Assembly: GCA_963822445.1 (NCBI GenBank)
Contig: CAWGHO010000001.1
Coordinates: 160,001-224,000 of the forward strand
Length of the DNA stretch: 64,000 nt
From: an uncultured Acidobacteriota bacterium
GTDB taxonomy: Bacteria > Acidobacteriota > Thermoanaerobaculia > Gp7-AA8
Reading direction: 5' to 3'
Part shown: piece after piece, positions 6,631 through 11,391 of the stretch
Layout of the letters: each line of letters begins with the position of its first letter
Numbering within the stretch: the stretch's first letter is position 1
Notes under the pieces: model-generated
The model's database searches: none
Told to the model about the DNA's origin: nothing
Seen by the model: only the letters and a program-made list of their open reading frames with translations
Made by a program: the position numbers and the translations under genes

Positions 6631-8046
6631 ATGCCCGCCGGTTTGACTGACGCCCCTCCTCCCCTGCTTTCGGTGATCGTGCCCTGCTACAACGAGCGGG
6701 CCACGGTCGCCGAGCTCCTGCGCCGCGTGCGCGAGGTGCCGGTCGACAAGGAGATCATCGTCATCGATGACCAGTCGACCGACGGCTCGCGCGAAGTCGT
6801 CGCGTCACTCGCGGCGCAATGGCCGGAGATCCGCCATCTCATTCAGCCGGCGAACCGCGGCAAGGGCGCCGCGATCCGCCGCGGCATCGACGAGGCTCGC
6901 GGCGACATCGTGCTCATTCAGGACGCCGATCTCGAGTACGACCCCGAGGAGTATCCGAAGCTCATTCAGCCGATCGTCGATGGCCATGCGGACGTCGTGT
7001 ACGGCTCGCGCTTCGAAGGCTATCCGCGGCGGGTGATGCTCTTCTGGCATCGCATGGGAAACACCTTCCTGACCTTCCTCTCCAACATGACCACCAACCT
7101 CGATCTCACCGACATGGAGACCTGCTACAAGGTCTTCCGCCGCGAGATCATCCAGTCGATCAAGCTCAAGTCCGATCGGTTCGGCATCGAGCCGGAGATC
7201 ACCGCCAAGGTCGCCAAACGCGGCTATCGCATTTACGAAGTGCCGATCTCGTACTACGGCCGCGATTACTGGGAAGGGAAGAAGATCAACTGGAAGGACG
7301 GTTTCGTCGCGCTCTGGACGATCCTGCGCTACGGCCTGTTCGACGATCGCGACACCGAGCCGCGCACCTACACGCAACTGCGCCGCCGCGCGCGCCTGAA
7401 GAAGTACAACCGCTGGGTCTGGGAGCGCCTGCAGCCGTTCGTCGGTCAGCGCGTGCTCGAAGTGGGCGCGGGCAGCGGAACGATGACCCGCTTCCTGTAT
7501 GGCCGCGAGCTGATCGTCACCACTGATCGCGAAACCGCGTATCTCGACCGCCTGCGCAATTACTTCCGCCGCCGTCCGGGAATCGTCGTGGAGCGCTGCG
7601 ATCTGGAGTCGGACGAGTCGCGGGAGCTGGCGCGATACAAGTTCGATACGGTGATGCTGATCAACGTGCTCGAACACACGAACGACGACGCCGGTGCGTT
7701 GCGCCGCGCGCATCAGCTGCTCGAGCCGCGCGGACGGGTCGTGATCTTCGTTCCCGCGGACAAGTCGCTGTACGGCTCGATGGATGAAGGGATCGGCCAC
7801 ACGCGCCGCTACGAGAAGGACGAGTTGATCGCGCGCGTTCGCGAGGCTGGGTTCACGCTCGAGTACGCGAGCCATCAGAACCAGATCTCCCGCCTGGCCT
7901 GGCGCATCAACTCGAAGCTCCTCGGCCGGAAAGCACTGCCCAGCGCGCAATCGCGGCTCTTCGATTTCTTCGTGCCGCTGTTCCGCGGACTCGAAGGCGA
8001 GAATCCATCGAGTGGCTTGAGTCTGATCGCGGTAGGCCGCAAATGA
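6631..8046 (+). CDS. DPM1-like GT2 glycosyltransferase fused to a class I SAM methyltransferase
   Basis: SVIVPCYNE, IDDQSTDGS, QDADLEYDP, DMETCYK; C-terminal VLEVGAGSG and NVLEH. Confidence 0.88.
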   Translation: MPAGLTDAPPPLLSVIVPCYNERATVAELLRRVREVPVDKEIIVIDDQSTDGSREVVASLAAQWPEIRHLIQPANRGKGAAIRRGIDEARGDIVLIQDADLEYDPEEYPKLIQPIVDGHADVVYGSRFEGYPRRVMLFWHRMGNTFLTFLSNMTTNLDLTDMETCYKVFRREIIQSIKLKSDRFGIEPEITAKVAKRGYRIYEVPISYYGRDYWEGKKINWKDGFVALWTILRYGLFDDRDTEPRTYTQLRRRARLKKYNRWVWERLQPFVGQRVLEVGAGSGTMTRFLYGRELIVTTDRETAYLDRLRNYFRRRPGIVVERCDLESDESRELARYKFDTVMLINVLEHTNDDAGALRRAHQLLEPRGRVVIFVPADKSLYGSMDEGIGHTRRYEKDELIARVREAGFTLEYASHQNQISRLAWRINSKLLGRKALPSAQSRLFDFFVPLFRGLEGENPSSGLSLIAVGRK

Positions 8047-8846
8047 AACGCGCCGCGGTGATCCTCGCCGGCGGTGCGGGCACGCGACTGCGGCCGCTCA
8101 GCTCCGACGAGAATCCGAAGCAGTTTCTGAAGCTGTTCGATGGCCAGTCGCTCCTGCAACTGACGTTCGATCGCCTGCGCCGCATCCTCCCCGCCGACGC
8201 GATCTTTGTCTCAACGAACGACCAGTACGCGGCGAAGAGCCTCGAGCACCTGCCCGAGCTGCCGCCTGAAAACGTGATCGCCGAGCCGGCCCGCCGCAAC
8301 ACGGCGCCGGCCATCGCCCTGTGCACGTTCGAGATCGAAGAGCGCATCGGTCCCTGCACCGTGTCGTTCCTCGCCTCGGATCACTACATCGGCAAGGTCG
8401 ACGAGTTCGTGCGCGTGCTCTCCCGCGCATACGACTTCGCCGAAACGAATGACTATCTGATGACGATCGGCATCGCGCCAGACGAGCCCACCACCGGCTT
8501 CGGCTATCTCGAGCTCGGCGAAACGCTCGATGGCGAAGTGATGCGCGTGCGCGCCTTCACCGAAAAGCCGGACCGCCCCCGCGCGGAGGAGTTTCTGCGC
8601 GCGGGAAATTACGCCTGGAACGCGAGCATGTTCGTCTGGCGCTCGGAGGTCTTCCGCCGCGAGCTCGCCGCGGTCGCACCGGACCTTGCCGGCGTGACCC
8701 GCGCAAATTACGAGGAGATGCCGTCGATCTCGATCGACTACGCGCTGATGGAAAAGTCGCCGCGCGTCGCCACGATTCGCGGGGATTTCGAATGGTCGGA
8801 TGTGGGGACGTTCGAGGCTCTGCGGCGCGTCGGCGTGGATGTTTAG
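8043..8846 (+). CDS. manC: Mannose-1-phosphate guanylyltransferase (no PMI domain)
   Basis: ILAGGAGTRLRPLS..PKQF, EPARRNTAPAI, SDH, FTEKP, SIDYALMEK, WSDVG. Confidence 0.88.
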   Translation: MKRAAVILAGGAGTRLRPLSSDENPKQFLKLFDGQSLLQLTFDRLRRILPADAIFVSTNDQYAAKSLEHLPELPPENVIAEPARRNTAPAIALCTFEIEERIGPCTVSFLASDHYIGKVDEFVRVLSRAYDFAETNDYLMTIGIAPDEPTTGFGYLELGETLDGEVMRVRAFTEKPDRPRAEEFLRAGNYAWNASMFVWRSEVFRRELAAVAPDLAGVTRANYEEMPSISIDYALMEKSPRVATIRGDFEWSDVGTFEALRRVGVDV

Positions 8847-8895
8847 CTCGATGCCACAGGGGACGACCGGGGGCCTCCGGACATCTGAGCCTTCC

Positions 8896-8901
8896 TGTCA
8901 A
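8896..8901 (-). promoter_or_regulatory. -35 box TTGACA in the IS right end; pairs with -10 TATAGC (10419-10414) only in the circular form
   Basis: Predicted junction TTGACA-ggaaggctcagatgtcc(17 nt)-TATAGC. Confidence 0.8.
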
Positions 8902-8902
8902 G

Positions 8903-10147
8903 TCAGGCAGCAGCTGTGGCGAGGGTTGAGCCTCGGGTGGCGAGCTGCCGCAGATAGAGAGCTTCGTCGTAGACGGTGCGATTGTTCCAGCAGGCGTAAA
9001 GGACGCGGATCCAGCGGTAAGCGAGCGTGCGGATAGCCTCGTGGTGGCTGTGTCCGCGCGCGCGTTGCTGCTTGTAGAAGGCTCGAGCCCATTCGGACTG
9101 ACCGATCGACACGCGGGCGTACTCATGGAACGTCTGACGCAGGAACTTCGGACAGGCCCAGCGCATGTGCACGACCGCCGTTTTGCCGCTCCGGCGGAGA
9201 ACCGGGGCGATGCCGCTTCGGGTGGCGACGTTGACGGCGCTGCCGAAGCGCTTGCGATCGGTCCCGAAGGCGGCGGCGAGCCGCGGCGCGAGCTGTTGGC
9301 CGGCGCCAGGGAAGCTCGCGAAGATCGACGCGTCCTGGTGGGCGGCGAACGCCGCCGAGATCTTCTGGTCGTACGTGGCGATGCTCGTGTTGAGGGCCCG
9401 GATCTGCGCAACCTCGCTTCCGATCAGCAGCACGGCAGCGTCAGTGGTGACCTGATCGTCGTGGAACGCGACCTCTGAACGGATCTCGGCGAGCCTCTGG
9501 TCGATCCACGCGGCCGCGTGATGACGACCCGCATAGAACCTCCTTATCGCGGACGGCCGAGCCCTTTGGATGGCCTCGAGCGTCGGCCAGCGTTCGAGGA
9601 AGTCACAGGCCTGCGCCGTAATCAACGCGCCGGCCCACTGGAGCGCCTGCGGGTAATACGTCTTGAGCCGATCGGTCATGCGTTGGACGTGTTGCGTCCT
9701 CTGATCGACGAGCTCCCGCCGATCCTCGGTCAGAAGCCGCAGCAGACGCGTAGAAGCGTCGTCGGCGATGAACGGGCGCAGCTCGTTGCGGTGCTTACGA
9801 AGCAGGTCGAGCAAGGACGCCGCGTCGGTCGGATCGTCTTTCGAAAGGCTCGGATGAAACGCCTCACGATACCGGGCTGCACTGCGTGGGTTGATCGGAT
9901 ACAACGTGACGAACGGATAGCCGCTGAGCGCGTCGAAGACCGCGCCGCGGGACTGCTCGATGGCCACGGCGATCGGTGCCCCGCCGAAGCGCGCCTGCAG
10001 CGCTTCGATCCATGCGCGCAGAGCCGCAGGCGTGTGCTCGATGCGCTCGTTCGTGCACGTCTGCTGTTGCTCGTCCCAAAGAGCCACCTCGTGCGATGTG
10101 TCACCCCAATCCAGCCCCACCAACGCCCCAAACTCGAACTCGGTCAT
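8903..10147 (-). CDS. IS110-family transposase/recombinase
   Basis: RuvC-like DEDD (GLDWG, AIEQ, KDDPTDA) and C-terminal Tnp domain SGIAPVLRRSGK. RBS AAGGGAGG lies upstream of MTEFEF. Confidence 0.95.
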   Translation of the reverse strand: MTEFEFGALVGLDWGDTSHEVALWDEQQQTCTNERIEHTPAALRAWIEALQARFGGAPIAVAIEQSRGAVFDALSGYPFVTLYPINPRSAARYREAFHPSLSKDDPTDAASLLDLLRKHRNELRPFIADDASTRLLRLLTEDRRELVDQRTQHVQRMTDRLKTYYPQALQWAGALITAQACDFLERWPTLEAIQRARPSAIRRFYAGRHHAAAWIDQRLAEIRSEVAFHDDQVTTDAAVLLIGSEVAQIRALNTSIATYDQKISAAFAAHQDASIFASFPGAGQQLAPRLAAAFGTDRKRFGSAVNVATRSGIAPVLRRSGKTAVVHMRWACPKFLRQTFHEYARVSIGQSEWARAFYKQQRARGHSHHEAIRTLAYRWIRVLYACWNNRTVYDEALYLRQLATRGSTLATAAA

Positions 10148-10159
10148 CACACCCTCCCT

Positions 10160-10410
10160 TCGGGTTGGCTTTGGCCGCGCGCAAGGCCTATAGTCGAGTC
10201 GTGCTCCGACAGCATCTGAGAATGCGTTTCGGGCCAAAGCACTTCGTCCCGCTCGAAAGTCCGGAGGGATTCGTCGATCCGAACACGGGCGGAATTCGTA
10301 GCGGGACGAACCCTTCCTCTCAGTATCGCGCCGCCTGAACCCGATTCTCCCGATTGCCACCCAACGGGTACTTCTCTGAGGGCTGAGGGAGAAGCGGAGA
10401 GACGGCCGGA
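10160..10410 (-). ncRNA. Putative IS110 bridge RNA (target-binding loop 10243-10310, donor-binding loop 10168-10240)
   Basis: Stems UUCGUCCCGCU/AGCGGGACGAA and GCUUUGGCC/GGCCAAAGC enclose segments matching the target flanks and the donor ends. Transcript ends are estimated. Confidence 0.8.
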
Positions 10411-10557
10411 CAAGCTATAGGCGGGCCGGCCACGGGCCGGCAGGCGCTGGTTGTGCCTTCTGCCGAGCTCACGGTAGCTAGCGCGGATCGCGTTCACGCC
10501 AACATGAGCGCTGCCGGCCGTGCCGGCCCGCCGGAGGCCTCTGGTTTCCCTGTTGCA

Positions 10558-11391
10558 TCACGCGAACAATCGCGTCGCGTTGTCCCAGAGGATCTTCCGC
10601 TCGACCTCGTCGCCCAGCCCCAAAGACAGAAACTCCTCCACATTCCGCTTCATCGACGCCACGCCGGGTGAAGGCCAATCCGTCCCCCACACCACCTTGT
10701 CCGCGATCTGCGCGACGCGCGGGAAGTACTTAGGCAACGCTTTGGGCGGGATGCCCGACAGGTCGATGTTCACGTTCGGGTGGCGGCGGGCCAGGAAGAA
10801 CGCCGTCTCGCCGTACAGCGGACGGCCCGCGTGCGCGAGGATGATCTTCAGATTCGGGAAGTCCACGGCCACGTCATCGACCGGCATCGGGTCGGCGAAA
10901 ACGTTGCGGGCGCGCGGGAACACCGACGTTCCCGTGTGGAACATCACCGGCACGCCGCGCGCTTCGCATTCGCGATAGATCTCCGCGAGCTGCCACAGCT
11001 CGCCGCGGTACGCGTTCGGCGAGAAGAGCTGGTGCGGCGGATGGATCTTGATCATGCCGATGCCGAGGTCGAGGACGCGGCGGATCTCGTCGCGGACGTT
11101 CATCTCGTGCAGCGGATTGACCGAGCCGACCGGCACCAGGCGATCGCGGTGGTCCTTCGTGTAATCCGCGATCCAGTCGTTCACTTCGCGGGTGAAACCC
11201 ATCACGTCCGGTGAGACGTAGTTGATGCAGCACAGACGCTCCACGCCCTGCTCGTCCATGTGGCGCAGGAGATTCTCCGGCGTCGACAGGATGTCCTTCG
11301 CGTTCGCGTGTGAAGGATCGTCGATCATGGCCAGCGCATCGGGATTGACCATCTGCCACGGCTGGATGTGGACGTGAACGTCGAAAATCAT
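10558..11391 (-). CDS. Amidohydrolase family protein (Amidohydro_2)
   Basis: DVHVH, KIHP, FHTG, LAHAG, WGTDWP. Confidence 0.9.
   Translation of the reverse strand: MIFDVHVHIQPWQMVNPDALAMIDDPSHANAKDILSTPENLLRHMDEQGVERLCCINYVSPDVMGFTREVNDWIADYTKDHRDRLVPVGSVNPLHEMNVRDEIRRVLDLGIGMIKIHPPHQLFSPNAYRGELWQLAEIYRECEARGVPVMFHTGTSVFPRARNVFADPMPVDDVAVDFPNLKIILAHAGRPLYGETAFFLARRHPNVNIDLSGIPPKALPKYFPRVAQIADKVVWGTDWPSPGVASMKRNVEEFLSLGLGDEVERKILWDNATRLFA

Follow-up and report, generated by a model that had tools for sequence, protein, structure and literature searches.

A predicted bridge RNA ahead of an IS110-family recombinase gene in a multicopy insertion sequence of an uncultured Acidobacteriota bacterium

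The stretch of DNA analysed here (the window: 64,000 nucleotides (nt), positions 160,001 to 224,000 of contig CAWGHO010000001.1, GenBank assembly GCA_963822445.1) belongs to an uncultured Acidobacteriota bacterium of the Thermoanaerobaculia and carries on its minus strand an insertion sequence of the IS110 family. With a probability that we put at about 0.88, positions 10160-10421 of the window form the non-coding left end of an IS110-group insertion sequence that is active and in which a predicted bridge RNA precedes the recombinase gene. Two modules make up the guide-bearing part of this RNA; the unpaired segments of module 1 correspond to the host flanks of the element, and those of module 2 correspond to the element's own ends. 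A natural pair of bridge RNA and recombinase had been proposed here by a first-pass annotation made without database searches, and this proposal was supported by the protein family, by the IS621-like geometry of the RNA and by the covariation of guides with flanks. From this covariation and from homology, we infer that the recombinase is probably programmable.

The first-pass annotation named four guide words, two closing stems and two junction strings, and each of them was found on the minus strand at the coordinates given there (Table 1). In PMC11208160, the bottom strand is taken to pair with the left guides and the top strand with the right guides. Read in this way, the right target guide CCUCCGG is complementary to CC+GGAGG and the right donor guide CUAUAGG to CC+TATAG, each at 7/7 positions including the CC core, and the left donor guide corresponds to the last bases but one of the right end at 8/8 positions. 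For the left target guide CCGCCCG, a 6/7 match to the flank had been noted; this match is real for seven of the ten genomic copies described below, where the mismatch is a substitution, but it is not general, as the flank variants of the other three copies match at 7/7 positions. When the 272-nt left end was shuffled 20,000 times with dinucleotides preserved, no shuffle contained all four guide words, which occurred singly in 1416 (CCGCCCG), 1448 (CCTCCGG), 68 (CTCAGATG) and 109 (CTATAGG) of the shuffles. The minimum-free-energy fold of 10421-10148, a step that the annotation had recommended, gave a 5' hairpin region and two modules, each consisting of a stem and an internal loop. The energy of this fold is only modestly better than that of shuffled sequences (z = -2.0; 4 of 200 shuffles fold equally well) and is therefore weak evidence alone, so the case was not built on it.

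The RNA was followed into relatives of the element, obtained as 72 loci by a scan of species-representative genomes; the closest of them (82-88% protein identity) lie in Thermoanaerobaculia assemblies, and the others (35-54%) are spread over many phyla. From 41 loci, 36 distinct anchored segments were taken, 2 loci being without an anchor, and the modules of the window and of 24 of these segments were aligned by MAFFT, the alignment not being fitted to structure. The 12 segments left aside were anchored on the wrong module (L033, L035, L036, L040, L062, L067) or were near-duplicates (L029, L045, L056, L060, L065, L081). The resulting consensus structure contains 31 pairs in five helices, and 22 of the 31 pairs show compensatory changes on both sides. 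Pairing is found in 93.5% of the alignment cells against 32-46% when the partners are slid by 1-3 columns, and the covariation score is 0.567 against at most 0.136 in the controls, the observed values being reached by none of 500 shuffles. The frames of the loops are invariant (ACGAA...UUCG in module 1, ACG.A...CG in module 2), and the loop segments vary.

The covariance model suggested by the annotation was built from this alignment (model R1), and it recovered the RNA upstream of the recombinase gene, as a full-length match, in 65 of the 72 loci. It also matched all ten copies of the element itself and had a single site within the window; ten weak antisense matches and one partial match were disregarded. 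In the relatives, loop 1 lies 52 to 206 nt away from the left end. When plasmids were searched with the protein, 1142 records were matched, all at less than 60% identity, and R1 matched upstream of IS110-family genes at all three plasmid loci tried, namely NZ_CP069544.1 (L087; Escherichia coli IncFIA plasmid; 90.3 bits), AP022422.1 (L088; Klebsiella IncN plasmid; 91.5 bits) and CP003090.1 (L089; Burkholderia replicon; 127.8 bits). Additionally, many short contigs of Algibacillus agarilyticus (L071-L080) start or stop inside a relative of the element, each with a different left flank, which suggests a high-copy element that broke the assembly.

Guide-flank covariation in homologues, which had been proposed as a test of the bridge RNA, was positive over 31 distinct loop-1 guide sets. 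The four guide segments of each locus were read from the R1 model alignment. The left junction was placed by means of the right donor guide, taken as its reverse complement, and the left donor guide served to place the right junction; only R1 matches with complete guide columns and both junctions located entered this count, the loop-1 distances given above and the split-promoter and handshake counts given below. Two of the 31 sets, with flanks cut by a contig end, were scored 0 and kept in the means. The left guide agreed with its own left flank at a mean of 6.29 of 8 positions, compared with 3.44 (standard deviation 1.29, n = 872) for the flanks of other elements; for the right guide, the corresponding values were 6.26 of 7 and 3.06 (standard deviation 1.13, n = 814). 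A score of at least 6 was reached on the own flank by 26 of 31 left and 29 of 31 right guides, and in the cross comparisons in 44 of 872 and 5 of 814 cases, respectively.

A side observation concerns three close relatives with the same target as the window element (L015, L016, L017; 82-88% protein identity). Their left target guide differs from that of the window at up to 4 of 11 positions, and the rest of both modules is nearly identical; in this comparison, the left target guide evolves faster than the frame, even where the target stays the same.

With the CC core counted once, the element is 1541 base pairs (bp) long. Terminal inverted repeats are absent, the ends TATAGC... and ...CAGATGT being unrelated. 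The left non-coding end (10419-10148) takes 272 nt and the right end (8902-8881) 22 nt, and this is the arrangement of a long RNA-bearing left end and a short right end that is described as a mark of the IS110 group (PMC11208160). In the 6.0-megabase host genome, assembled in three contigs, ten end-to-end copies were found (nine full-length at 96-100% identity and one internally inverted), together with two partial ones. The junctions are the same in 10/10 copies (left ...CCCG-CC-TATAGC..., right ...CAGATGT-CC-GGAGGC...), and CC is the sole sequence common to both junctions in all of them. The annotation had called the system intact, in agreement with the retention of the 414-amino-acid (aa) frame in nine of the ten copies and with the two RNA modules (element positions 112-254), which are identical in all ten apart from one base in one copy; substitutions between copies are concentrated at element positions 16-105, in the 5' leader. 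Judged by its sequence, the element is intact and recently active.

In the inverted copy (G000:C3:469299-470839; L010, L012, L014), element positions 417-577 are inverted in place, which disrupts the recombinase frame, leaving a 63-aa open reading frame and three TGA codons in the read-through. The two partial copies (G000:C1:940359-941429; L011, L013) comprise element positions 849-1541 and 1163-1541, lie in opposite orientations and abut at about 941051, each with an ordinary right junction, suggesting a rearrangement between copies. Within the same genus, the distribution is patchy, with a match to the element in 3 of 18 other genomes (78%, 45% and 42% identity), and no match was found in 12 genomes outside the genus. 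When the assembled contigs of four DNA runs were compared with 8600-10700, short contigs of one soil run aligned with parts of the element (97-99% identity); 10171-10336 was among the parts covered, with a single difference.

Table 1 Features of the element, its RNA and its target in the window
Feature	Position	Strand	Remarks
Whole IS110-family element	8881..10421	-	nine full-length matches and one internally inverted copy, same junctions in all ten
CC core, left junction	10420..10421	-	second copy at 8879-8880, just beyond the right end
TATAGC, start of left end	10414..10419	-	right-donor segment and -10 hexamer of the split promoter
5' leader	10311..10413	-	stem-loop(s) upstream of both guide modules in the fold; variable among copies and relatives
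Target-binding module (module 1)	10243..10310	-	11-bp stem, CGAA/UUCG inner helix, small hairpin between guides
Closing stem of module 1	10310-10300 with 10253-10243	-	11 bp, perfect
Left target guide region	10293-10284	-	CCGCCCG at 10292-10286 (string check), then UG
Right target guide CCUCCGG (DNA word CCTCCGG)	10267-10261	-	string check; handshake dinucleotide AC after it at 10260-10259
Donor-binding module (module 2)	10168..10240	-	9-bp stem, hairpin between guides
Closing stem of module 2	10240-10232 with 10176-10168	-	9 bp, perfect
Left donor guide CUCAGAUG (DNA word CTCAGATG)	10220-10213	-	string check; then CUG
Right donor guide CUAUAGG (DNA word CTATAGG)	10193-10187	-	string check; handshake dinucleotide CC after it at 10186-10185
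Recombinase gene, 414 aa	8903..10147	-	GGAGG ribosome-binding site at 10157-10153; candidate catalytic residues D13, E64, D105, D108, S320
TTGACA, -35 hexamer in right end	8896..8901	-	immediately follows the stop codon
Right-end terminus CTCAGATGT (left donor)	8881..8889	-	
Right target GGAGG	8874..8878	-	followed by the remainder of the repeat
Left half of target repeat	10422..10441	-	GC-rich hairpin, arms GCCGGCC/GGCCGGC, loop CGT
Unoccupied 14-bp target	10524..10537	+	second repeat copy, opposite orientation, about 100 bp from the occupied site

All ten end-to-end copies occupy the same CC dinucleotide of one dispersed repeat of about 70 nt, in which one of two alternative 5' parts is followed by a GC-rich hairpin and the CC site. 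The empty target reconstructed by the annotation proved to exist, since the 14-mer composed of the 7-nt left target, CC and the 5-nt right target occurs 32 times exactly in the genome; together with 8 unoccupied sites carrying the second form of the left target, at least 40 empty sites are available. The 3' arm of the hairpin continues into the 7-nt left target CGGCCCG (10428-10422). Three main forms of this hairpin were found (17, 11 and 6 sites), in which the arms differ and the pairing is kept, with folds of -8.3 to -11.2 kcal/mol; a dispersed-repeat target with a compensatory 5' stem-loop, of the type described for ISPpu10, is thus present in the sequence, and by analogy this hairpin may serve as an additional structural check on the target. 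The central 10-mer of the repeat is found at 112 sites genome-wide, with 20 opposite-strand pairs less than 200 bp apart. In the window, the repeat covers 10470-10560 (+), 10422-10470 (-) and 8850-8880 (-), and the repeat pair lies between two convergent genes (8043-8846, +; 10558-11391, -).

The protein was assigned to the IS110 family by Pfam PF01548 (DEDD_Tnp_IS110, 1.6e-28) and PF02371 (Transposase_20, 1.4e-11), and it narrowly passes NCBIfam NF033542, "IS110 family RNA-guided transposase" (143.5 bits, cut-off 140). An N-terminal DEDD RuvC-like domain is followed by a C-terminal Tnp domain with a serine, as is characteristic of the IS110 group. Among 16 aligned proteins (40-100% identity), D13, E64, D104, D105, D108 and S320 are invariant; D105, D108 and S320 align with D102, D105 and S241 of IS621 (IS621 numbering from PMC11208158), residues that are named there as catalytic. 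By its sequence, the protein is an IS110-family DEDD/Ser recombinase of a clade distant from IS621. Within the coding region, an Rfam match to BTH_s19 was rejected (14.9 bits against a gathering score of 153).

The two ends of the element, when joined in silico across one CC, form a sigma-70-type promoter with TTGACA and TATAGC separated by 17 nt. In the relatives, at least 4 of 6 positions agree in both hexamers in 23 of 31 cases, with a TATAG-type hexamer at their left end. In the integrated state, the minus strand was free of promoter-like sites in a scan of 8700-10700, and a terminator between the RNA and the recombinase gene was likewise not found. The sigma-70 promoter would form only on circularisation, and by analogy with IS621 the excised circle would be the main source of both the RNA and the recombinase; integrated IS621 copies are reported also to express the RNA weakly (PMC13626964). 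As for the circle junction described by the annotation, the strings of both ends were verified, and the circle itself is deduced from these two ends. Note that the only promoter-like site in 8700-10700 is antisense, TTGGCT-18-TATAGT at 10165-10194 (+), inside the donor-binding module; it may be a by-product of the guide, because its -10 hexamer is the complement of the right donor guide.

By homology with IS621, excision would join the right end of the element to the left end across one CC, and this joining would place TTGACA 17 nt from TATAGC and switch on the transcription of the bridge RNA and the recombinase. A recombinase tetramer would hold the bridge RNA, again by homology with IS621, and Ser320, together with the D13/E64/D105/D108 site, would cut and exchange strands at CC. 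The exchange would be aided by the AC that follows the right target guide and is complementary to the donor GT, and its outcome would be an insertion with CC on both sides. According to PMC11208158, the dinucleotide following a right guide pairs with the non-cognate DNA (the handshake). In the window, the target-loop AC pairs with the donor GT at 2/2 positions and is not complementary to its own target CG. The donor-loop CC pairs with the target CG at 1/2 positions (first C with G), and its first base is unpaired with its own donor T; wild-type IS621 is described as likewise pairing at only one of the two donor-loop handshake positions (PMC11208158). After one of the 31 sets had been dropped for a cut flank, the family-wide signal at the donor loop is clear: in 20 of the remaining 30 sets, the first handshake position can pair with the non-cognate target, and in 1 of the 30 it can pair with the own donor.

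A number of observations weigh against the interpretation of the left end as a bridge RNA, or against parts of it. A search of 8500-10900 against Rfam 15 (expectation value, E, up to 1) gave no family match beyond a chance-level one. None of the sequencing runs listed for this sequence is registered as RNA. The solved bridge recombinases are only remotely similar to the protein, and in the C-terminal domain only (ISCro4, E 2e-5; IS621, E 2.4e-4). No joints, circle junction or emptied site were seen in the short contigs of the soil run, and as the contigs of the four runs hold no joints of any kind, they say nothing about excision. The agreement of loop 2 with the donor across relatives is true by construction, because the junctions were located using the loop-2 guides, and the agreement of loop 1 with the flanks is alone independent. 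For the target loop, the handshake is weak across the family: it holds in only 15 of the 30 sets, and in 8 of the 30 the dinucleotide pairs with the own target. Moreover, the register is uncertain in some clades, and in a Colwellia-type clade the junction dinucleotides at the two ends disagreed in the automatic parse.

The remaining observations of this kind concern the left guides. Seven of the ten copies occupy sites with one mismatch to the 7-nt left target guide; the exact-match form of the target is occupied at 3 and empty at 8 sites, the one-mismatch form occupied at 7 and empty at 32, and no occupancy preference for the exact-match form is visible because these numbers are too small. 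At the positions that correspond to the CC core, both left guides read UG, and pairing with the core is confined to the right guides; this register is fixed by relatives, of which L016 (...GGCCCGCC) and L018 (...CCUCCCC) each end in CC and L017 has UG like the window. At the first core position, the left guide could form a U-G wobble only, and the IS621 assays in PMC11208160 describe a strong preference for core pairing. An alternative register of the left guide, in which CCGCC pairs with CCG + CC, is possible, and the sequence gives no preference between the two; the register used here is the one homologous to L016 and L018. The lineage of the element has multiplied despite the UG, and full core pairing by the left guides therefore appears dispensable in this element.

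These features of the left guide raise the question of its contribution. It is possible, but distinctly improbable, that the bridge RNA system is real and its left target guide contributes little, in a "half-match" style of recognition where the site would be decided mainly by the right guide of 7 nt (core + GGAGG) along with the target hairpin and the protein. The lack of complementarity of the left guide to the core (UG against CC), the mismatch at one position in 7/10 occupied sites and the second register, which would pair CCGCC only, are all consistent with such a division of work. So is the conservation of the hairpin 5' of the site, whose arms vary in a compensatory way among the three repeat forms (17, 11 and 6 sites). 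Half-match recombination has been reported for IS621 (10.64898/2026.08.31.748434), and a target stem-loop has been reported as a determinant for ISPpu10 (10.64898/2026.03.19.712850). At the same time, the left guide tracks the left flank across relatives as strongly as the right guide tracks the right flank, it is identical in 10/10 copies, and 6 or 7 of the 7 left-target positions still match, all of which argues against this division of work.

Far less probable is the explanation that the structured leader is a mere 5' untranslated region controlling the translation or stability of the recombinase, and that the protein reads the words matching the ends as subterminal repeats in the DNA, with no role as RNA guides. 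The RNA does lie directly before the ribosome-binding site with no terminator between them, and CTATAGG, an inverted copy of the left terminus, can be read as a subterminal inverted repeat. However, terminal repeats cannot explain loop 1, because it matches host DNA outside the element and changes with this host DNA in relatives; covariation is found in the stems, and variability in the loop segments; and the asymmetry of strands (left sense, right antisense) is that described for IS621 (PMC11208160). Chance similarity in GC-rich sequence has a negligible probability and was rejected. The two GC-rich 7-mers, each present in about 7% of the shuffles, would allow it if taken singly, but it is refuted by the four-word shuffle test and by the tracking of flanks by guides, and the four words stand at homologous loop positions in the relatives. 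A bridge RNA encoded before an IS110-family recombinase gene is thus the reading retained here.

Since 2024, bridge RNAs have been an established kind of system, and computational surveys have covered thousands of orthologues; one more leaves the general picture unchanged. Two details of the present locus are notable, namely the left guides that are unpaired with the core and the target hairpin kept by compensatory change. The locus provides an unusually complete natural data set, with ten copies, at least 40 empty sites and three compensatory hairpin variants in one genome, and the lineage has spread although its left guides do not pair with the core. It is therefore a convenient test case for the weight of core pairing and target structure outside IS621, and also for the programmability of a distant clade of longer recombinases on GC-rich DNA. 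We tentatively suggest, as a proposal more doubtful than probable, that the 414-aa clade, from soil Acidobacteriota to Enterobacterales plasmids and with the frame ACGAAU...UUCGAG, may be a subfamily with its own rules: a 14-bp target of 7 + 2 + 5, recognition of the core by the right guides alone, a UG at the end of the left guides that stays unpaired or forms a wobble, and the target hairpin as a second check. If these rules apply, the system would be naturally adapted to GC-rich sites and its core logic would be unlike that of IS621. The occurrence of the same RNA family on Enterobacterales plasmids is relevant to the site choice of those elements. A full-text literature search in a limited collection returned no bridge RNA paper on Acidobacteriota IS110 elements; the element is plausibly uncharacterised, and it or its clade may already be named in existing listings.

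Among the closest known systems is IS621 of E. coli, as described in PMC11208160 and PMC11208158. The window element and IS621 share a two-domain DEDD/Ser recombinase, a 2-bp core and the absence of terminal inverted repeats; the order of 5' stem-loop, target loop and donor loop in the left-end RNA; left guides in the sense of the top strand, antisense right guides and handshake dinucleotides; a promoter split across the joined ends; and a target in repeated extragenic sequence. They differ in protein length (414 aa in the window against 328 aa in the solved IS621 chain), in the core (CC against the CT described for IS621), in the right guides (core plus 5 nt, that is 7 nt, against 4 nt) and in the lengths of the modules (68 and 73 nt against 65 and 68 nt), and the left guides of the window element stop before the core with UG, unlike those described for IS621. 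Among solved structures, the best sequence match is the ISCro4 transposase (PDB 9t56; E 2e-5), a remote one that covers residues 274-406 of the C-terminal domain only. The plasmid elements of NZ_CP069544.1, AP022422.1 and CP003090.1, annotated merely as "IS110 family transposase", encode proteins 42-45% identical over 98-99% of the length with the same RNA family upstream, and they differ in guides and hosts. ISPpu10 of Pseudomonas putida, by its published description (10.64898/2026.03.19.712850), resembles the window element in the dispersed intergenic repeat that serves as the target and in the GC-rich stem-loop just 5' of the site, the 3' arm of which continues into the left target. A further resemblance is the frequent occurrence of sites as opposite-strand pairs less than 200 bp apart, with 20 such pairs among 112 sites here and 40.8% reported for ISPpu10. 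The core is CT in that description and CC here; the role of the hairpin in the window element is suggested only by its three compensatory arm variants.

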